DNA of 39,929 nucleotides, from assembly GCA_001275005.1 (NCBI GenBank), contig JWZX01003328.1, positions 1 through 39,929 of the forward strand. Direction: 5' to 3'. Origin of the DNA: Chrysochromulina tobinii. Taxonomy: Eukaryota. A model generated the notes under the pieces. The model saw only the letters and a program-made list of their open reading frames with translations, had not been told where the DNA came from and ran no database searches. Position 1 is the first letter of the stretch. Each line of letters opens with the position of its first letter. A program made the translations under genes and the position numbers. This document shows positions 2,698 to 35,500 of the stretch, piece after piece.

Positions 2698-5134
2698 TCA
2701 CGCCGTCCATCTCATCACGGGTGGTGCTCGACATGCCTCTTCCTCCTGTGAGAGCGCCGCCGCACACCGGCGCGTCTCAGGGTGCTCCGGCCCAAGGACG
2801 GTCCTCATGCGCTCGAGGGCCGCTTTCAGCGGGCGGAGCCCTCCGCCTGCCGCGCACTCGAGCCGGGCGTGGACGGCCTCGAGCAGCAGCGTCGTGTCCA
2901 CCGTCGGGCCCAGCGCCGCACGCGCCGTGCTGAGCACGCGTGCATCCACGAGCGCGCGGGCGCTCTCGATGCGGCCTTGCGCGCGGCGCACGTCTGCGAG
3001 CCAGGCTTGCGAGCGCAGCTGGGTGCGCTGGCCCTCTGCGAGCGTCGCGGCGCAGCCGTGGTGTGCTTCGAGGAGCAAGGTCTCGGCCTCGCCCAGCCGG
3101 CCCTGGTCGTGCAGGAGCCGCCCGAGGTTGTTAATCGAGGCGAGGGTGTCCGGATGACGATCACCGAGCGTCGCACGCTGCGCATCGAGCGCCTCGCGCA
3201 GCAGCCCGCCCGCCTCTTCGAGCTTGCCCTGGTCCTGCAGCAGCAACCCCAGATTACTAATCGAGATGAGGGTGTCCGGATGCCGATCGCCGAGCGTCGC
3301 ACGGCTCACCTCAAGGTCCTCGCGGAGCAGCACACCCGCCTCGTCGAGCTTGCCCTGATCGTGCAGCAGCCCCCCCAGTTTACTAATCGAGGTGAGGGTG
3401 TCCGGATGCCGATCGCCGAGCGTCGCACGCCTCGCCTCGAGCGCCTCGCGGTACAGCACGCCCGCCTCGTCGAGCTTGCCCTGGGCCCGCAGCAGCCCCC
3501 CCAGATTAGCAATCGAGGCGAGGGTGCGCGGATGCCGATCGCCAAGGGTCGCACGCCTCGCCTCGAGCGCCTCGCCGTACAGGACGCCCGCCTCGTCGAG
3601 CTTGCCCTGGGCCCGCAGCAGCAACCCCAGATTGTTAATCGAGGTGAGGGTGTCCGGATGCCGATCGCCGAGCGTCGCACGGCTCGCCTCGAGCGCCTCG
3701 CGGAGCAGCATGCCCGCCCCGTCCAACTTGCCCTGGGCGTACAGCAGCGTCGCCAGATTATTAATCGAGATGAGGGTGTCTGGATGCCGATCGCCGAGCG
3801 TCGCACGCCTCGCCTCAAGCGCCTCGCGGTACAGCACGCCCGCCTCGTCGAGCTTGCCCTGGTCCTGCAGTCAGCGCCCCCAGATTATTCATCGAGGCGA
3901 GGGTGTGCGGATGCCGATCGCCGAGCGTCGCACGGCTCGCCTCGAGCGCCTCGCGGAGCAGCCCGCCCGCCTCGTCGAGCTTGCCCTGGTCCTGCAGCAG
4001 CCTCCCCAGCCGATCCTGCAGCGCCGACGTTGCCCGCTCCTCGCGCGGCATGCGCGCCAGCGCCGCGCGGCCCTCGGCCGCGAGCCACTCGCGCAGCGAC
4101 GCGCACACCGTCGCCGTCACCGCACCGATGCCGCCCTCGAGCTGCGCCACCTCGGCCAGGATGTAGTCGCGGTCATCGACCATGGTGATCTGCGCGTCGG
4201 CCGCGTCGATGCCCGCCACGATGCCCGCAATCTCGCCGAAGCGCCTCGTCAGCAGCTCCGCGAAGCCGTCCACGTCCGCGGGCGCGAGCACCACATGTAG
4301 CGTCGCGCCCTTGGCGAGCGCCTTGACGAGCTCGAACAAGCACCACGCGCGCGTCATCGCGCCCGGCCCGCGGCGCATCCAGCGGGCAGGCGGCGCGCCG
4401 CGCTCGGGCAGCAAAAAGGGCTGATCAGGCGCGGGCCACTCGGCCGTGAGCGGCGAGCAGTACAGGAGGATCTCGCCGATGGCCGCCATCGCATCGGCAA
4501 AGACGTGGTCCGTGTCCTCCTTGCGCGCCGTGTGCGCCTCGCTGCCCCGAGGGTAGCGGCCGGCATCAAACTCGCCCGAGAGCAGCGTCTGCGAGGCCGC
4601 AAAGATGTCGATCCGCACGTAGCGCGTCACGCCGTCGGCGGCCTCGAGCTCGGCCAGCCTGCGCTCGATGGCGTCGAGCATGTCGCCCAGCTTCGTGCCC
4701 TCCCACGAGTACGAGAAGAAGGTGGTCGCGAGGCCGATGAGCGCGTCCGCCACTTCCCCGCGCGCCTCGGCCGTGAGCGCGAGCGTCTCGATGAGCGAGA
4801 GCCCCGTCGAGCGCGTGAGCGCGCACACGCTCCACTCGAAGCCCTCCTTCTTGATCAGGTCGCCCATCAGCATGCTGAGCGCGCCGCGCGCGCGGTAGAA
4901 GCGCCGGATGGCGCGCAGCATCTTGCGGCTGATGCCGCGACGGCCGCTCGGCAGGCGGCGCGCGTGCGGGCGCGCCGGCACGTCGAGCGTGCCCTTGGGC
5001 ACGCGCGCCGCCGCGATCGCGTCGAAGAGCGCGTCGGCGAGGGAGTCGGGATCGCTCCGGATCGATGCCTTCCGATCGACAAAGCGCAGCCCATTGCGCC
5101 GCCTCCGGATCACAGCCGACAAAGCGCAGCCCAT
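2698..5134 (-). pseudogene. HET/TIR-like domain + kinesin-light-chain-type TPR array protein (~811 aa if repaired), split by a +1 frameshift at 3871 (pseudogene or sequence error)
   Basis: ORFs 3815-5134 and 2698-3837 join into one frame when the extra base at 3871 is removed (compared with sister repeats). N-terminal motifs TFFSYSW, IDIFAASQ, TRAWCLFEL; seven LGDRHPxTL 42-aa repeats. Confidence 0.75.
3100..4010 (-). repeat. Tandem 126-bp coding repeat array (about 7 full TPR units of 42 aa)
   Basis: Near-identical units such as ggatgccgatcgccgagcgtcgcacg recur with 126-nt period; unit consensus QGKLDEAGxLxREALEAxRATLGDRHPDTLxSIxNLGxLLxx. Confidence 0.95.
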
Positions 5135-5435
5135 TCATGAGCCCATTGCGGAGCCCCGAATCGCGGAACTAGAGGGCTTCCAAATTTGGGTGGGCGAAGC
5201 TAGCGACCATGTACGTAAGGAGTGTGTATTCTGAGCGGGCAGAACATGTAACAGTGCCGTAGCACCGGTTGTCGCGTCTGTCGTGTTAACGTTCACACAC
5301 GACACACACACCTCAGATTACCGCGTACAAAGTAGTGAGAGTTGTAGCAGAGTACCGTACAAGTGCTGTCAACGCAAGGCTTGATTGACATAACAAGGAA
5401 CAAGCGAAGCAATCCCATCGGAAATACACCCAAAG

Positions 5436-7159
5436 CTACGCCTTGTGGGCTCGCAGATGTGACATCGCGTGCTCCCGCAGCAGCTCGCGCAGCTCCACGG
5501 GCATCTCCGTCGACTGCCAGCACGTCACCTCGGCCGTGGCCGCGGCGAGCTCGCCTGTGGCGTCGCTCACGAGAAGCTGCAATTTCGCCAGCTGTGGGCC
5601 TAGGGCCGGGTCCTCGATCGAAGCGCCCTCGTGAGAGACGGAAGCGGAGAGACGTGCCCGGTTCAGCAGCTCCTTGAGCACGGCGGCCGCTGCTTTGGCC
5701 GCCGCTGGGCTCGGCGGCACGGCTGGCGGCGGCGGCGGCGGCGGCAGTGCAGTGCCCCCCCCAAGGAGAACCTCCGTCGGGGACGGTGCATTGGGGCTCT
5801 CGGACTCGAAATAGCCGACGCCCGCGTAGAGGGTGCCACGGGCATGTGTTGGCAGTGGTCGCAGATGGCTCGGCGAGACGCCCTCGCCCGTGCCCATTTC
5901 GCTCTCGTTCGAGTCGCTGCCCTGAGCGACCCCCGTTAGGCGCTTGAGCTCGCTCTCGCTCTCGCTGCTGCTCGAGGCATGCCTAGCGCCCTGTTGGGCG
6001 GCGAGGCGTGTGACGAAGCATCCCTTGGTACGCAGGGGCGCGTTCTTGCTCAGCCGCCACGGGTACGTGACCCAGCCGCCGCCCAGGCGCGCCGCGGCGT
6101 GGAAGCGCTTCAGGAGCGTCGGCTGATCGATCGACGTGTTCGCCGTTGCCTCGAGCACCTCGGCGAGTGTACGCCCTACAAAGGCAGGTGAGGCGCCGTG
6201 CGCGAGCAGGAGGCCGTCTGCCGTGCACACGAAGCCGTACATGCCATGTGCATGGCTGTCGGGCTGCGGGGGCTGGGCTGCCGGCGGCACCAGAGCGTAC
6301 CCGACCCCCGCATAGAACTCCTGTCCCCACTGTGTCACCTTCGAGATCCAGGCTCCCTTGTGCTGCAGCTTCTGGGTGGAATCGTTCCTCCATGCGTAAC
6401 TCACCTAATGAGGGAGGTCATCAGAGGTCATCAGAGCTGTGTGGAATCGTTCCTCCATGCGTAACTCACCTAATGAGGGAGGTCATCAGAGGTCATCAGA
6501 GCTGTGGAATCGTTCCTCCATGCGTAACTCACCCAATCGCCGCCCGCCTCGGCGGCTTGCTTGAAGCGCTCGTGCAGCGCCTCGCCGTCCACCTCATGGT
6601 TGCTCGTGAGCTCGAGCACCTCGCTCAGCGTCTTGCCGACGAACCGCTGATCGGCGCCGTGCGCTACGCACATGCCTGATTTGTAATTGAACACGAATCC
6701 GTAGAAGCCGGCGGTGCGATCGAGGCAGAACTTGACGCTCTTGCGCTCGGACTTGGGCGAACCAACTTTGGTTCCGAGGCTGTCCTCTGCCTCGGAGCCT
6801 GCGTCAGAGCTTGGCAATCCGCTGTCGAGCTCGGCTGAGGTACTGCGGCGGCGGCGGCGGCGGAGTGCCGGCTGCACGATTGGCTTCGTGGCCGGTTCGA
6901 GCGGCTTCGAGTCGACGAGCCAGCCCCACTGATGAGCCCTCGCGTCATCCAATACTCCGCGGTCGTTCTTGTGCTCGTCAGTCACTGAGAAGGATGGGCG
7001 TCTGCGAGGCGGTCTCTCTGACTCTGGTTTGATATCCTCCTCCTCCTCCTCCTCCTGCATCCATAAATGGTAAATGATGTAGGCGGCTACAGCGCCGGCG
7101 GCGACGGCGCCAGCGGCCACCGTCGCAGCTCTGCGCCACCGCGTGCTCGGTCGACTCAT
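5436..7159 (-). CDS. N-terminally membrane-anchored protein with two tandem single-Cache-like sensory domains (~531 aa); exons 7159-6533 and 6404-5436
   Basis: Hydrophobic segment AATVAAGAVAAGAVAAYIIYHLW. Two copies of YGFV..G..AHGA...FVG[KR]TL.EVLE...F..AA..GG.WV.Y.WR....KG......YAGVGY. Splicing TGG|GTGAGT...CATTAG|GTG restores GGDW-VSYAWRNDSTQKL. Confidence 0.75.
6405..6532 (-). other. Spliceosomal intron (128 nt) made of two tandem units (63 + 65 nt), each = 29-nt copy of the downstream exon start + CTGATGACCT-repeat 3' splice cassette
   Basis: GTGAGTTACGCATGGAGGAACGATTCCAC occurs at 6504-6532, 6441-6469 and, as the exon, 6376-6404. Each intronic copy is followed by (AC)AGCTCTGATGACCTCTGATGACCTCCCTCATTAG. 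Confidence 0.85.
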
Positions 7160-7302: not shown

Positions 7303-8661
7303 ATGGCGCCCCTCGCTTTCTTTCTCCTGTTTGTTGCCGCGAGCCCGCTCGTCACATGTGCGCTTGCCGATGGCGGCAAAAGTCCGCCTGCGCGGCGCCT
7401 GAAGGCCAACAAGTACGCCCAGTTTTCCAAGGCGGACGAGGTTCGGCGCTCGCTGCGCTTCTCGAACGTGGACGATGCCTTCGGTGATGAGGTCACAGCA
7501 GAGCAAGCCAAACCAACGGCTGAGCCGCTGCGCGAGCGCGAAAAGTGGGCCTACCCAGACGCAGCGCAGGTTGACCAGCGCGACCCGACTACCTTTGGCT
7601 TCACGGAGATCGGCGTCGTGCTTGGCGCCCATGGCACACGCGGCGAGCTCAAGGTCTTGTCAGACTCAGACTTTGCTCACGAGCGCCTGTGCCACGCCGG
7701 GCCAACGTGGATGCGGCGCCCACGGCGGCGTGCGCCACGCGAGGAGCGCGTGCTGCGCGGGCGCAAGGGACCGGGCACCAATGTGTTCCTCGTGACGATC
7801 GAGAGCGTGCGCAGTCGTGAGGTGAGCACGCAACGTTCACTGCCGCTGTGCACCCCGCGTGCTTCGCCCTTTGCCCGTGCTGCGATCCTCTCAGCGCGCG
7901 CCCACGCGCTCTTGTGTGCACCTTCGACGCAGGCGGCCGACGCGCTCAAGGGCTCGACGTTGCACGTGCGTCGCGAGCTGCGCCCGGAGCTGGGGGAGGA
8001 TGAGTTCATGTTGTGGGAGCTCGAGGGATTGAAGGTGTACCTGGCGCTGGCTGTTGGGAAAGATGGTGTGGCGAGAGAGGAGGCGTCGAGCGCGAGTGCG
8101 GAAGGGCACGCATCAGCTCCAATGGATGGCGCCGTGACGGGCGCCACTGGTTCTCGATCTGCGGACACGACCAGCTCTGTGGCGGACGGTGCGCTGGCGT
8201 ACGTTGCAGGGGCATTTGTTGGCGTCGTGAGCGGACTGATCCCGCGCGAGGAGCTCACTGGCAGCCGCGAGCTCGGTAACGACCTGCTCGAGATCACCCT
8301 TTGCTCGTCCGTGCGTGGCGCCACCGCCGAGGGCGAGGACGAGGACGATGAGAATGACGTCGAGGATGCGTCCGTTGATGACGCTGATGACGAAGACAGT
8401 GACGTGAGCGCATCCGACCACGAAGGCGGCGAGGCGGGCGGTGACGAGGAGGACGGCGACGAGGATGAGAGCGTGCTCGTACCCTACGTCCCGCAGATCG
8501 TGGTTGACGTCCGGCTCTCTGAGGGCTATTTGCTCATCGACCCGCCGAAGGGGTTGCTCAAGATCTGCATTCAGCCCAAGCGGCGCGTACGCGTCGTCAT
8601 CCGTGGCTTGTTACCGGAACGCGCGCAGAGCCTCCTCGTACGCGAGAGCAGTAGTAGCTGA
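7303..8661 (+). CDS. rimM: Ribosome maturation factor RimM, probably plastid-targeted; exons 7303-7821 and 7933-8661
   Basis: IGVVLGAHGTRGELKV, SRE|AADALKGSTLHV, DEFMLWELEGLKV, NDLLEI, LVPYVPQIVVDVRLSEGYLLIDPPKGLL. Signal-like N-terminus MAPLAFFLLFVAA; 111-nt GTGAGC...GCAG intron. Confidence 0.9.
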   Translation: MAPLAFFLLFVAASPLVTCALADGGKSPPARRLKANKYAQFSKADEVRRSLRFSNVDDAFGDEVTAEQAKPTAEPLREREKWAYPDAAQVDQRDPTTFGFTEIGVVLGAHGTRGELKVLSDSDFAHERLCHAGPTWMRRPRRRAPREERVLRGRKGPGTNVFLVTIESVRSREVSTQRSLPLCTPRASPFARAAILSARAHALLCAPSTQAADALKGSTLHVRRELRPELGEDEFMLWELEGLKVYLALAVGKDGVAREEASSASAEGHASAPMDGAVTGATGSRSADTTSSVADGALAYVAGAFVGVVSGLIPREELTGSRELGNDLLEITLCSSVRGATAEGEDEDDENDVEDASVDDADDEDSDVSASDHEGGEAGGDEEDGDEDESVLVPYVPQIVVDVRLSEGYLLIDPPKGLLKICIQPKRRVRVVIRGLLPERAQSLLVRESSSS

Positions 8662-9356: not shown

Positions 9357-10076
9357 ATGTACAATGCGAGCACAGCTCTTTTGTCTGCTAGGTTGGCAGA
9401 GCCTTGCCCATGGTGGTCCATGGGCCCGCGCCAGGCGTCGGGGTCCTCCATGCGGTCCGGGATTCGCAAAGGGAGGAAGGGCGCGACATTGCCCCGCCGC
9501 AACAGCCTCTCACCTCCTCCCTTGCTGCGACAGGCAACCGTGACGCGAGACGATGCGGTTGCCGCGAAGTTCTTACTATCGCCTGATGCTCAGCAGCCCA
9601 ATCTCATCCTCCGGCTCAAGAGGGAAGGAAAAGAGTGGAAGTGCGTCTCCTTCCCACAGTTGCCCCCGCAATCACCTCCGGAGCGCACAGCCTGCTTGCC
9701 CGGCCCATGAATCCCACCGTATCTGTCGCCTGCTCACGCCCACCTGCACAGGTGTAGTCCTTCGACCTCGCCGAGCACGGCAGGGCCGCTCGTCTCACCT
9801 GTCGCACAGCGCCGCGAGCCACGTGCGACGTGGAGTCCGATGAGGCCTGCGTCATTCGGATGCAGCCACGAGTGCACGCGCGAAGAGAATGACCACGAGC
9901 TGAATGATGCTGGTATGCAAGAACGTGAAGTATGGGGTGCTACGCCGATGCGGCTGCGACAACAGCTGTCCGTTGGAGTACCGCGCGCGCCGCAATCTGC
10001 TTCAAGGATCCAATTTCAGTACACAGTTTCGAGCCCGCGCCCGGGCGCGGCCGGCGAGGCCGCGGCAGGCGCGTGA
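9357..10076 (+). CDS. Possible small spliced hypothetical gene (structure uncertain)
   Basis: Exon-like segment ATVTRDDAVAAKFLLSPDAQQPNLILRLKREGKEWK is flanked by a pyrimidine-rich ...GCGACAG acceptor and a GTGCGT donor (~9641), with a ...TGCACAG acceptor near 9751. No recognisable domain. Confidence 0.25.
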
Positions 10077-14387: not shown

Positions 14388-17300
14388 ATGTCGACTGCCG
14401 ATATCATCGGTTCCCTCCTCGCGTCGGCGGCGGACGCTCTGCTCGACGAACCGGCGCGGCGCCATGCGCTTGGCCAAGTGAAGCTGCTGCAGGCACCACC
14501 GGAGGTCGTACGACCGGCAGTGCCTCTGTTGCTCCGCTTGCTTGAGGACCCTGCCGCTGATGTGCGCCGGATGGCGCTGGCTCTTGTGGAGGATGCAGGG
14601 CGCTCATGCCCGTCGACCATTCCCGAGCTGCTCCCGGCGCTGCTCACCAGGCTTAGCGACGAGAGTGCGCCCACGCTTAAGCGCGCCCTGGCAGCTGCGA
14701 CGTCGCTCCTCCGACCGACGCTTGTACTGCTGCTTGCTGAGAAGGATGAGGCTGCTGCCAAGGCACTCGAGCCCACCTGGGGGCACCTCCGCAAGCTGCG
14801 CGAGACAGCGGGCACGCTCCTCAACGCCGCGAGCGCCGCCGATTCGGTGCGCACTGCCGCCGTCAAGGCATGTGAGGCGCTGGTGCTCGCCTACACGGAC
14901 GAGCCTGAGGATGAGGGCACGGAGTCAGCGGAGGGGCCGCCTGGCGCCGATGTGACCAGTGGCGGCAGCGGATGGCGCCTGTCGGCGCTGCCTGCTGCAG
15001 CCGCGCTCGAGGATGGCAATGGTGCCAATCGAGGCGTACACGTGGGCGAGGGCGGCACGAGCGGCGCCGAGAGCAGCGGCAACGAAGGCGGCGGCGAAAC
15101 AGGTAGTGAGGGCGCCGCTGCTATCACGGCAAGCGAGGAGAGCAAGCTCGGCAAGCGGCCACCCCATCCGCTGCTCGAGCGCGCGGCACTCGAGGCCGAA
15201 GGCGAAGCTACCCTCACTTTGCTCGAGACGACGCTACTAGCGCCGCCCTCAGCGACAGTTCTGCTGGTGCTGCTCACGTCGATCGCGGCGCTTGCCCGGC
15301 AACGTCGGGTGCTGCTGCAACGGCTGAGCCGCACGCTCGCGGCGCTGTCGCGCGCTCTGCTCGAGCGCGCTGCCTCGCTCGCCGCGCTTCCGTCCCATCA
15401 GGTCGCCAACGCTCAGCAATCTCTACGGGCGGCGCTCCTGACTCTGCTCAAGACGACGCGCGCACGTGAGGACCGTGCTGTTGAGGAGGAGCTCGCGACG
15501 GCGCTGCGCCACCTCGGCGCGAACGAGCAGCTCAAGCATCTGTACAAGCTGATGGGCACCGAGCCCCCCCCGCTGCTCGGGGGGGGCGAGCGAGGCGCGT
15601 CCGAGAGCGCCGTATCGGGCGCCGGATCGAGCGCCGTATCGGGCGCCGTATCGAGCGCCGTATCGAGCGCCGCTGACGGCAGCGGGAGTACCAAGCGTGC
15701 CACTGCCGATGGCACCGAGGGAGGCGACAGCGCGTTCGCAGCAGGTCCGAAGCGCGTTAAGACCGAGGGGGCGCCCACGGCGGCGCTCGCGACGACGACG
15801 ACGACGAGCAGTGGAGGCAGTGCTGCCGCCTCGGCGCGCCTGGGGATGCCGCCGCGCCCGCCGCTGCTGCCCCCCGCGGAGCTCGAAGCTCTCCTCTCTC
15901 GGCTCGGGCCGCATCTCGTGGCGCAGCTCGTGATCGCCTCCATGCCGTGGCTGCCGCCGCGCCCGCCGCCGCCGCCGCCGCCGCCGGCTGGTACCGGTAC
16001 GGCGCTCGAGCGCAAGCCCATGAAGCTCAACGCTCCCATAAAGATGGACGCGGCGGCGTGCGCGTCGCTGGCGGAGGCGGCCCTGGCGAGCCTGATCGGC
16101 GACGATAGGGAAGCACAGCTCGCGGCGAGAGGGCTGGCCGAGGTGCGCGCACTCCTCCTCGGACGACGCGCGGCTGCATGCAAGTGCTCACCACGGCGCC
16201 CTCCTCTCCCCACAGGTGCGCGCACTCCTCCTCGGACGACTCGCGGCCAAGCAGCGCGCCGATGGCCCTTACTGTCACGCACTCGCTGCCCACGTGCTCG
16301 CGGCGCCAATGGAGCGCCTACCGGTGGCTCTCGCCTGGTTGCATGCAGAATTCGCCGAGCATGGGAGTGGCGCGACGGAGGTGGGCGGTGCTCAAGGCGG
16401 CGCCGCGAAAACGGGGGAGACGGCGTCGCCCAGCCGGTACGATGTGCTCGCCATGTCGCTGCTGCCGCGGCTGCGCCGTGCCCTGCCGCCCAATGCACGC
16501 GCCGCCGTCCAGGTGCTCTTGGATGTACCCAAGCTCATGTCCGAGTGGCTTTCAAAGCTCATTGAGCTCGAGGGGGAGGAGATGTGGCGACCGGGGCTCG
16601 CGGCCTACCGCGAGCTGGCGATGCAGCGCGACGCGCTCGGGCCGGCGTGCCTGCGCGCGCTGCTTCAAGTGGCGACCTCGGCTGGGGAGTCGGCTGGGGA
16701 GGCTGAGAGGCGCGCACACGCGGTCAAGATCGTGACGGCTCAGCTGCTCCCTTTACCTCGCTTCGCTTCGTTGATTGGCGGCTTTGCCGAGGCGCAGCTG
16801 CGCCGCCTCGTGGGCGCGTCCACCACCGCCCATCCGACGGCCAGCTGCGTCGGCGACGGGATGGACGTGTCATCGGACGGCGAGATGGCCGAAGACTCGT
16901 GGGCCATCAAGAGCCATCAGGAGGGCGAGGAGAACGAGGACATCCTCACGGCGCATGTGCAGCTCTACCTCGCAGTGGTTGCCAAGGAGCCCGCACGGCT
17001 GTGGCCTCTGCTCGCGCACTTTGGCGGCGCCTCGGCCGGCGCGCAGGCGGTGCTGGTGCGGAACGCGCCCCTGCTCGTGCCGCACATCGACCCCGTCGAG
17101 TTGGCGTCCCTCCTTGTGAGAGCGATGCGTGAGATACGGCCCCTTGACCCTAGTGCGCCGCTGATCCTCGCTCTACTCACGGCCGTGGCCGCCGGCTCGC
17201 CTACCGGTTCGCCGCCCGCACCGCCTGCACCGCCCGCGGCGCTCGTCGAGGGCACGCTTGAGCTCTGCTGCACCGAGCTGCGCGATGGCCGGTATGCAGT

Positions 17301-17931: not shown

Positions 17932-18187
17932 GATGGTGGTGCCGGTCGGCGGCCGGCACCACACGGCCACGGGCATCGGCGGGCCGGGAGTTGTTAACAG
18001 CCCATTCACGCAGCTTTATACTCACCGATGTAGCGCGGCTTGTCGGCCCGCGTCGAGCTGTTTAAAGAAGCAGCGCTTGTTCACAGCCAATGGTTTAATT
18101 CGGCACCCAAGACACCGGACCGGCGTACATACAGTGTTGTTCACACCTCAAGTCGACGCAGCACCAGGGCGCGACAAACGTCGCGAG

Positions 18188-32579: not shown

Positions 32580-35500
32580 CTATTTTGTGTCTGATTTTTC
32601 TCGAACTGCTGTGACGGCCCGCTGGTTGTCGCGTGCGACGAGCTGCTCGTAGTAGACGCGCACGCCTTCAAGGTTGGCCGGGTCCGCCTCGTACTCGATC
32701 GCCTTCTTGAGCCGAATAAAGAGCCACTCAGCCATCGAGTTGGAGGTGATGCGCTCATACGCGGTGTTGAAGATGGCGATGAGCAGGTTGAGGAGCACAA
32801 AGTACGAGGTGACGATGAAGGACCAAAAGAGTGCGGAGGCTCCCAGCTGCACGCTGGGCGAGAGTGGCTCAATCATATCGAGGCTGGCGCCGCCGGCGAG
32901 CCACAGGCACATCTGGGACACGATGGACATGTAAGAGTAGTCGAAGGAAAGGCCTTGGGAGAGCGACGCGAGGTACTCGGACGAGACGCCAAAGTGGATG
33001 AGCGAGTAGAAGCCGTTGGCAAAGCCCACGAGCACGATGCCGAGCACAACCGCGAAGCGCACCGAGTCCGAGAGCATCTGGGTGACAGTGATCAACAGCG
33101 GGCCGAGCACCTTGAAGATAGCGACCAAGTTGAGGATCGAGAGGGCGAGGGTCACTTGCAGCGCGCCATCGAACAGCGCGAGGACCTCGGACAAGGACTG
33201 CACGAGGTCATTGTTATTCTCAAGGTCCACGGACGTGGCTACGCGCCACGCGGTCACGACGGGCACGAAGGCGAGGGAGTACAGGTCGAGTGCCTCGAAG
33301 AAGTTGAGGGATGCGGGTTTTGAGCGCAGACGGCGCAGCTGGTCATTGCCGAAGAGGGCCCAAGAAACCGCCGAGGCGCTAGTGGCCGCGTAGAAGAGGG
33401 GCGTCCCCGGCTCGCCCACGCTCGCGACGAAGACGGAGAACGCCATGGCGGAAAAGATGCCAAAGCGGTTTCGGTAGCGCTCGCCCGCGAAGGTGGACCA
33501 TTTACGCTCGAGTAAGTCGAGCATCAGAGGAGTCTCGAGGAGCTCTTTGCGCTCATGGCGCAAGATGAGCTCCTCGATGGTCACAGGCTGCCCCTTGCCA
33601 TCACGCAAGACGAGCGGCTTAAGCGGCTTGAGCAGTTTCGAGTCGGGCGCGGTTTCGAGTCGTTTCGAGTCGGGCGAGTCCGCCGCTGGCACGCCCTCGC
33701 CGAGCACGCCCGTGCCTTCCTCGGCGCGCGAGGGCGGAGCACTCTGGTCTTCGCTGAGCGGCAGCACGATCCCCCCGAACGAGTACCAGTACAGGTCGTT
33801 GCCCCACCATCGATACTCGAATCGGCTTTTGGCGTTCAGGAGCTCAAGCGCGAGCTCAGGCATCGTCTCGATCGCCATCGAGAGCGGCGAGCGGCCGCCC
33901 TTGTTGATCGCGAAGCCGTCGACGCCCACGCCCAGCAGGAACCGGGCCGCTCCGATGTCACGCGAGGACTCGAGCAGCGTGTGGAGCGGATTGGAGAGCT
34001 CGGCATCCACCTGATGAGGGGGCCCATCAAGAGCAATCAGTGGCAATCGGTGGCACTCAGCGGATGGGAGAGCTCGGCGGAAGGTATACCTCGCGGAAGA
34101 CCGAGGGTGGCAGGTGCTCACGCAGGTACTGGAGCACCTCGAGCTGACCGTTGAACGCGGCCGCATGCACAAGTGAGAAGAGTGGCGCGTCCTGCAGCAG
34201 CCACTCGAGACGTTGGCGCAGGTTGCACCCCGCCTGTCGGAGCATCTCGAGAGCCACCACGTCGCCCTCGAAGCATGCGTGCACTGCCGGCCCTCCCCAA
34301 TAAGTGGGCGGGAAGTTCGGGTCGGCGCAGCCGGAGGCGAGCACGTCTTTCAGGAGCTCGAGGCGCTCTGCCTCGGACACCCCAACCATCGAGCGTCGGA
34401 AGTTGCCCTCGTCGGGTCGCACTAGCAGGCAGAGCGGCGTGCGGCACCACCCTTCGAGCTGCCGCTCACCCGTCGAGCTGTTCAGCATCGCGGGCGGGTA
34501 GACAAAGTTCCAGTCGATCTCGGTGAGCGCGCGGATGGTGTTGAGGTCACCCGTCTTGATCGCATCGAGGAGCAACACCCGCTCCGCTGTCAGGTAGTCG
34601 TTGAGCTCGATCTCATTGCCATACTTCGTCTTGAAGCGGCGGTAAAGATCATCTTGCACGCGCAGCACGTCTACCGCGTCGTCGCCGAAGCCGCGCGACA
34701 GCGAGCCCTGGATGCGGCTCTCGATGACCCCGAGCCTCGCGGCATCCCTCTCGGCGGTGCTGTCAGACCTCCTAGAGCCGCTGTTGGAGGTGGAGGCTGC
34801 CGCCGCGAGCTGTTGGCGCACGTCGCTGTCGAGCAGCCGCATGTACTCAGCAGCCTGCATGTTGGCCACATTGGCGCGATTGGCGGCCTCGTCATAGGTG
34901 CTAAGCCGATCCGAGGCAGCCAAGAGCGCACGCTCGTACTGCAGCGAGTTCCAGATCAGGTCCGTCGCCATCTTGGAGAACTCGTCGAATGAGAGCCTCC
35001 CATCGCCGTTCCTATCGTACTGGTTCAAACGACGCTTGAGGTCTTTCGAGCCGCGAGTGAGCGAGGTAATGCCCACCTGCTCGAAGGCGATGTGCAGCTC
35101 GTTGGGGCCCAGGAATCCGTCGCGCGGCAGCGAGTCGAGCTTGTCGAACAGATCCCGCCACAACACCACCCGCCGTCGCTTGCGTAGCCAGTCGCGGGCG
35201 ACCGCGGTGATGCGCACGCCCGTCTTCGCGTACGCGTTCGCATTCCAGGGGGTCTTGAGCGTGCGCATGAGCACGCTGAACTCATCGAAGTTGAGAACGC
35301 CGTCCTCGTCTACATCGACCTCTCTTATCAGGGTCTTCAGATCGTCGGCAGGTGGGATATCCAGTTCGAGCCGCTTCAGCACCACAAGCAGCTCACGCAG
35401 GTCGATATTTCCATCGCCGTTGATGTCACACTCGTCGAAGCAGCGCTTCCATAGGCGGGCGGACGAGTCCTCGAAGAAGTCGAGCAGGCTCCCGCGTATG

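Follow-up and report, generated by a model that had tools for sequence, protein, structure and literature searches.

In the window, by which we mean the whole 39,929-nucleotide stretch of Chrysochromulina tobinii DNA analyzed here, a gene for a Cache-domain protein of 531 amino acids carries an intron that cleanly exemplifies a kind of intron gain, with long exon duplications, that is apparently not yet described. A variable stretch of intron-type repeat array plus an acceptor lies between two copies of the start of the downstream exon. The intron belongs to a family of at least 21 introns that begin with such an exon copy (here called an echo), with duplications of 11–37 nt, excess microhomology, a single orientation, and at least two kinds of tail. 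This wider family is a more interesting result than the question of recursive splicing at the focal locus.

On the minus strand, an identical 29-mer occurs three times (6532–6504, 6469–6441, and 6404–6376), and both intronic copies are followed by a cassette of CTGATGACCT x2 plus CCCTCATTAG, as a first-pass annotation of this DNA had described. The intron, 128 nt in all, consists of two stacked units of 63 nt (6532–6470) and 65 nt (6469–6405) that differ by 2 nt and abut at 6470/6469 in CATTAG|GTGAGT; the earlier description of two back-to-back mini-introns holds. The repeated family to which the locus belongs had gone unnoticed in it. We take CTGAT in the 10-mer repeats of the cassette to be branch-point-like. 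Tandem Repeats Finder (TRF) assigns the repeat a period of 65, 2.6 copies, and a score of 304, so it is not due to chance. The target reads TGG|GT, without AG, and the left match to the upstream exon is 1 nt only. The features of the locus are as follows.

6533..7159, minus strand: coding part of exon 1 of the Cache-domain gene, from the ATG at 7159, 209 codons to a phase-0 junction; covered by RNA contigs.
6470..6532, minus strand: first intron unit, of 63 nt, made of an exon echo and a 3' cassette, with donor TGG|GTGAGT; DNA piece 6472–6533, RNA piece 6441–6533.
6504..6532, minus strand: echo copy 1, 29 nt, the same as the start of exon 2; the target duplication supplying the donor.
6470..6503, minus strand: 3' cassette 1, the 10-mer repeat x2 plus the acceptor CCCTCATTAG.
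6405..6469, minus strand: second intron unit, of 65 nt, exceeding unit 1 by 2 nt and joined to it at CATTAG|GTGAGT.
6441..6469, minus strand: echo copy 2, 29 nt, reaching 33 nt if one mismatch is allowed.
6405..6440, minus strand: 3' cassette 2, whose acceptor is the one used in the mature mRNA.
5436..6404, minus strand: exon 2, with 322 codons and a stop codon; the original target is its initial 29 nt (6404–6376).

Both units are real. Two of the 12 DNA runs and four of the six RNA runs containing the stretch were examined, four runs with almost no shared words being left out. In DNA run X9, depth was 92.5 over the piece spanning the shared AG|GT junction and 57.7 over the unit-1 piece (6472–6533) versus 44.8–46.1 in the flanks, giving ratios of 2.04 and 1.27. 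Two different units are expected to yield ratios of 2.0 and 1.19, one unit 1 and 1, and two identical units 2 and 2; the locus therefore holds two different units, neither one nor two identical ones. The first-pass annotation had asked whether raw reads would reveal a single unit and hence assembly stutter. That reading now seems scarcely credible. Among the contigs listed for X9, none is specific to unit 2, and positions 6438–6440 appear uncovered, as a single unit would have it, but the two depth ratios fit two different units, the units differ by 2 nt, and the 63 + 65 nt arrangement is present in two of two assemblies of the locus (which are perhaps not independent of the window's organism). 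The doubling of depth at the shared junction, 2.0 times single copy in X9, contradicts a single unit directly.

Both units are also removed. Contigs of RNA runs X15 and X17 lack precisely these 128 nt, the gap having GT..AG borders when read on the minus strand, and the protein record P0028 reads through the exon junction unchanged. If either unit is kept, translation from the ATG at 7159 ends after 221 or 229 residues, whereas removal of both restores the frame of 531 amino acids across a phase-0 junction, which bears out the earlier statements that removal of one unit leaves a premature stop and that both must go. As to the RNA test proposed with those statements, the 128-nt skip joins the exons in two of the four runs, and unit-retaining sequence is found in two of the four as well. 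In these latter runs, X1 and X14, contigs break at the repeat, and a 93-nt unit-containing contig has depths of 2.8 and 4.4 versus 8.5–10.8 for the exons. Some unit-retaining RNA (or DNA) is thus present in two of four RNA runs. The 93-nt contig is, however, also expected from fully unspliced RNA or DNA because unit 2 is absent from DNA contigs too. Moreover, the 29-mer repeat with its preceding G measures 30 nt, and the contigs were presumably built with a k of 31 and bubble removal; because of that 30-nt repeat, one-unit intermediates are not separable from unspliced molecules in short-word contigs. In assembled contigs alone, stepwise and one-step removal look alike.

Recursive ratchet points are known in Drosophila and human. 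In the focal intron, as at such sites, an acceptor directly abuts a donor consensus (at 6470/6469), and the units could leave stepwise through this zero-length exon, a matter that is independent of the origin of the intron. We rate stepwise removal at slightly below an even chance. Each unit has the length of a normal intron and a donor and acceptor of its own, the internal donor reading GTGAGT; the 93-nt contig is compatible with an intermediate, but equally with unspliced RNA or DNA. Other members of the family speak against a need for recursion. Locus L062 (330–620, minus strand) is an EMP70 gene (E 6e-36) in which an older intron ends in GATTGCAG and is followed by a 75-nt echo unit that starts with AT and contains in-frame stops. 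Its internal junction, AG|AT, cannot act as a donor and would have to be skipped, so only direct use of the distal acceptor would yield a functional protein, and recursion is therefore not required in the cassette family. Because internal AG|GA and AG|GG junctions exist also at L081 and L015, one-step skipping appears to be available. Zero-length exons do have a precedent in a short, 336-nt intron of S. pombe (10.1101/226894). Unlike the recursive sites known elsewhere, the focal AG|GT is a by-product of unit duplication, and such stacking appears polymorphic between assemblies.

P0028 matches dCache_2 over residues 95–178 (E 1e-10), a span that includes the junction at 151/152, and passes the Pfam cut-offs for dCache_2 (41.6 bits versus 26.5) and sCache_2 (33.1 versus 25). 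Ten more distant homologs align contiguously across the W|V of the focal junction; relatives with contiguous proteins are 35–66% identical. Three of these homologs lie on contigs of 22–148 kb, and judging from their presumably unspliced gene calls they are probably intron-less at the focal site. Gain at this position is argued from these contiguous relatives; the scan described below, which picks up sites by their cassette, showed no empty (intron-less) allele. The neighboring gene, divergent from the Cache gene, is RimM-like (7306–8658, plus strand; Pfam RimM E 6e-9) and has one ordinary intron.

A scan for the 30-nt tail, of the form (CTGATGACCT)n-CCCTCATYAG, gave 112 loci with 128 matches, of which 12 were dropped for short flanks, leaving 43 distinct sites. 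The sample consists of 40 locus clusters from metagenome records with flanks of 300–400 nt and is not a genome-wide census; for the exact 30-mer, the Chao1 estimate is about 44 sites. Over the tails, the contig depths add up to far more than a single copy would give, though this sum is a depth value and not a copy number. With an echo defined as a score of 10 or more, a copy of the start of the next exon stands at the intron start at 22 of 43 distinct sites, against none of 212 shuffled pairings. Counted by terminal ends, 21 of 40 have an echo (11–37 nt, median 26), and the 19 that have none scoring at least 10 may be older, longer, or nested cases. The 5' junction falls at repeat registers 1, 2, 3, 6, 7, and 8. 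In 13 clean junctions (the other eight of the 21 were excluded because they did not match the consensus repeat cleanly), microhomology averages 2.46 nt versus 0.70 nt by chance, a value reached in 0 of 100,000 resamples. GT or GC directly follows 35 of the 40 terminal ends. Among 19 outer donors, G occupies position -1 in 16, and eight lack an upstream AG, so the acceptor is supplied by the insert; in at least two of the cases that do have AG, this AG is the acceptor of an older intron.

The tail itself is not one fixed element end. The flanks contain 37 further repeat arrays, 36 sense and one antisense; 17 of the 37 end in the CCCTCATYAG type, and the rest end in different acceptors or have unresolved ends. 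The CATTAG ending seen at the focal locus is the rarer one (29 of 177 ends). Among the 40 clusters, a single cross-locus match in the 5' part was found: L060 agrees over 32 of 35 nt of this part with an intron whose flank is not homologous (L018/L068). Their exon starts agree at 16 of 22 nt, a value among the top two in 780 pairs. L060 and L018/L068 are a possible donor–recipient pair, one case that was found after the fact. In three cases, introns with the exact tail are less than 2 kb apart on one contig (L002/L003, L036/L061, and L025), which hints at local copying or at intron-rich regions; more generally, clustering of cassette introns (eight extra sites versus 0.8 expected, about four of them nested or stacked units) is a hint only. 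In viral contigs, neither the main tail pattern nor that of family 2, described next, had any match.

The same architecture is built with a tail of unrelated sequence, which we call family 2, in the window and at L032. Two further introns of the window are candidates for the echo type.

16143..16215, plus strand: predicted second echo intron, 73 nt, in the symplekin gene; 32-nt echo with one mismatch, ending in the family 2 tail.
34011..34089, minus strand: predicted third echo intron, 79 nt, in an EF-hand/ankyrin/ion-transport gene; diverged 20-nt echo starting 6 nt into the exon, ending in CCCTCATCAG.

An echo is present at two of the five family 2 copies examined (window 16143–16215, L032, L010, L046, and L069), and three of four flank copies are without one and may likewise be older, longer, or nested cases; the family 2 tail is very deep in DNA contigs. 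No splice joint for the intron at 16143 occurs among the RNA contig joints listed. The symplekin exon of the window shares 97% identity with a gene model of Chrysochromulina parva, which places the organism in Chrysochromulina. The motif sought at this intron is absent from that model, which thus lends the junction no support. The intron at 34011–34089, in a gene whose domain layout would be TRP-channel-like, is probably an older, decayed example of the echo type. Three ordinary introns (9641–9751, 7822–7932, and 11485–11305) have no echo (scores 3, 1, and 5), and all three are followed by GT or GC; most introns here look as if they had begun at G|GY targets (n = 3).

Repeats of other kinds also occur in the window. 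At 3086–4009 and 3818–5134 (minus strand), 126-nt tandem repeats encode TPR repeats at a gene end, with a long open reading frame stopping inside the array. The short intergenic segments 5248–5299 and 18090–18135 have very high DNA contig depth and many loose ends, and each may be a dispersed repeat or the end of a small element.

Stacking of units, as at the focal locus, is seen at 13 of 47 sites. By eye, the units share one junction at L001, L003, L004, L017, L023, L027, L031, and L060, which fits unequal exchange between echo and exon; at L005, L036, and L041 the stacked units have different junctions and look like second insertions. At four sites (the L003, L004, L005, and L023 groups), assemblies disagree on whether one unit is present or two. 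Assembly collapse may account for some of these differences, but there is sequence divergence between the alleles as well, and the differences do not all run in one direction. In the focal intron, doubling is likelier than two insertions because the units share their junction, repeat number, and the rarer CATTAG ending. The first-pass annotation had allowed for a unit either duplicated or inserted twice very recently; a recent two-unit intron it is, with duplication the more likely of the two. A separate group of loci (L024, L039, L040, and L044) forms a tandem array of 340–495-nt units, each cassette-ended and with the same stop-containing start, perhaps a runaway amplification of one unit.

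With moderate confidence, we favor an origin of the focal intron in which the exon received a copy of some other intron's 3' end, about 30 exon bases being duplicated in the process so that their GT became the donor, followed by doubling through unequal exchange. The template would be the repeat-array-plus-acceptor end of an existing intron, and the copying would be a microhomology-guided template switch in DNA repair or replication. A nascent strand would leave the exon 11–37 nt past a G|GY, enter the 10-mer array of the donor intron in any register, copy through its AG, and rejoin at the G|GY; the duplicated target at the start of the insert would then supply the donor. Selection would retain those events that fall on a G|GY within an exon or on an acceptor already in place, and later unequal exchange between the direct repeats would produce two or three units.

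Several other origins have to be weighed against this template switch, and the closest runs through RNA: an excised intron 3' end, or a SINE-like RNA ending in AG, would serve LINE-type machinery as the template for reverse transcription at a nick, and the long duplication would result from 5' truncation together with a second, staggered nick. Target-primed reverse transcription leaves a precise 3' end, 5' truncation, a long variable duplication, and 5' microhomology. Because these are also the features of the echo introns, where the insert stops exactly at AG, its 5' end lies at any register of the array, and microhomology accompanies a long and variable duplication, the DNA route is not singled out by them. 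An RNA route predicts nearly the same junctions and is the main rival, yet we consider it unlikely on balance. No poly(A) tail or partner element was seen in the 112 loci, within flanks of 300–400 nt only; the L060/L018 pair suggests a template with exon-like sequence still attached; and random nicking should leave antisense and non-GY copies in non-coding DNA, whereas all but one of the 37 arrays run in the sense direction and GY comes after 35 of 40 ends. Template switching by reverse transcriptase has been proposed for intron gain (PMC3443670), and long variable duplications with 5' truncation flank Dualen and R9 non-LTR insertions (PMC9977147). In PMC9977147, long target duplications are credited to Dualen LINEs and not to Chlamys Penelope-like elements; the main text of the Chlamys paper names no haptophyte. 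In contrast to Dualen and R9, no coding element or tail was found with the echo introns, and their inserts are sense intron ends at G|GY.

Less likely again is that the introns were renewed rather than gained, a tandem duplication across an old 3' splice site having made the echo unit and the old upstream intron having later been lost precisely. Echo units do sit right behind an earlier intron end at L006, L010, L047, and L062, and the outer donor contexts, with their G at -1 in 16 of 19, resemble ordinary exon ends. But the new tail at L010 and L062 differs from that of the old intron, so these units were not copied locally; the focal gene's homologs run through this position uninterrupted; and an extra precise loss would be required at every single-unit site. 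Renewal therefore seems improbable, and more so still does a tiny non-autonomous element of the HUH-endonuclease type (Replitron- or Helitron-like) with one fixed end, orientation-specific insertion at a dinucleotide, a variable duplication, and a fuzzy other end. Replitron-1 inserts in a specific orientation at RG with variable duplications and one fuzzy end, and one Replitron protein is attributed to C. tobinii (PMC10288648); there, the author calls such insertion signatures non-canonical for the group, and Replitron-1 avoids genes, whereas echo inserts make introns. A 7-bp hairpin can form at the cassette end, but it is no better than in shuffles (z 0.02 to -1.04), and the C/T variant is just the Y of YAG. 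Moreover, there are several different tails, no Rep gene was seen in the loci scanned, and terminal direct repeats are absent apart from the array itself. The classic tandem duplication of an AGGT-containing exon segment (the Rogers model) we regard as very improbable. It is an established mechanism that likewise gives an intron beginning with a copy of the following exon (PMC3443670), but it takes both splice sites from the duplicated AG|GT, whereas here the acceptor comes from outside the duplicated segment: the 3' half of the intron is a shared foreign tail, the match to the upstream exon is 1 nt, and many targets lack AG, as do eight of 19 outer donors. The TGG|GT target contradicts it at the focal locus.

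The echo introns resemble several described systems without fully matching any of those compared. The literature compared included PMC8557442, PMC4580454, and PMC11282704 as well as the papers cited here. Some known introners, among them a Symbiodinium example, bring their own 3' splice site and obtain the 5' one from duplicated target sequence (Gozashti et al. 2022, PMC9860276 / bioRxiv 2022.06.06.494994); like them, the echo introns combine a repeated sequence at unrelated sites (the exact 30-nt tail in 40 locus clusters), an acceptor in the insert, a donor from the duplicated target, and an unchanged mRNA. In the same work, the examples cited have target duplications of 4–8 bp, and an example from a marine Chrysochromulina metagenome-assembled genome carries its 5' site. 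Unlike introners, the echoes are variable, 11–37 nt long, and make up much of the intron; no terminal inverted repeats accompany them, and in place of the fixed ends and short fixed duplication of TIR/MITE introners, the registers vary. The 5' end lies variably inside a 10-mer tandem array, which makes the tail low in complexity, and similarity is confined to the 3' end, the 5' part being a locus-specific exon copy. Echo introns work like an acceptor-carrying introner, yet they depart from introners on two counts, similarity near both ends and freedom from simple repeats, and from AGGT duplication on a third. In Daphnia, gains at staggered double-strand breaks leave short repeats around mutually unrelated inserts (PMC3443670 and PMC4202315). 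The echo introns resemble these gains in that direct repeats are read as repair footprints and in that gains recur at one position; they differ in the length of the repeat, an extended copy of exon sequence, and in an insert that is an intron tail competent for splicing and common to many loci.

Published surveys would likely miss such a route. The introner pipeline of PMC9860276 wants similarity near both intron ends and discards repeat-rich families, and a 2025 survey lists zero families for C. tobinii (PMC12130899), from an assembly that may not contain the echo family. Those supplementary files of these two surveys that were searched did not yield the tail motifs, and no description of the echo-intron architecture was found in the literature searched, which was at abstract level and included few subscription journals.

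The origin of spliceosomal introns is a long-open question, and the mass gains known have mostly been traced to transposons with short target duplications. Echo introns point to a class that current introner pipelines filter out. Many of them are young and keep a readable record of the event in the duplication length, the register of the junction, and sometimes a candidate donor; they vary between assemblies, and the genus has a sequenced, cultured species. The mechanism is therefore testable. The stacked units are, in addition, natural test cases for how the spliceosome treats an abutting AG|GT in very short introns. More tentatively, and at less than even odds in our judgment, the 3' halves of ordinary introns may have served in general as a mobile template pasted at exonic G|GY sites, a transposon-free process that would have made a large share of the introns of this genome and would still be active. 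If this is true, units are still being added and stacked in living populations, and the branch-point array and acceptor of any intron could be pasted.
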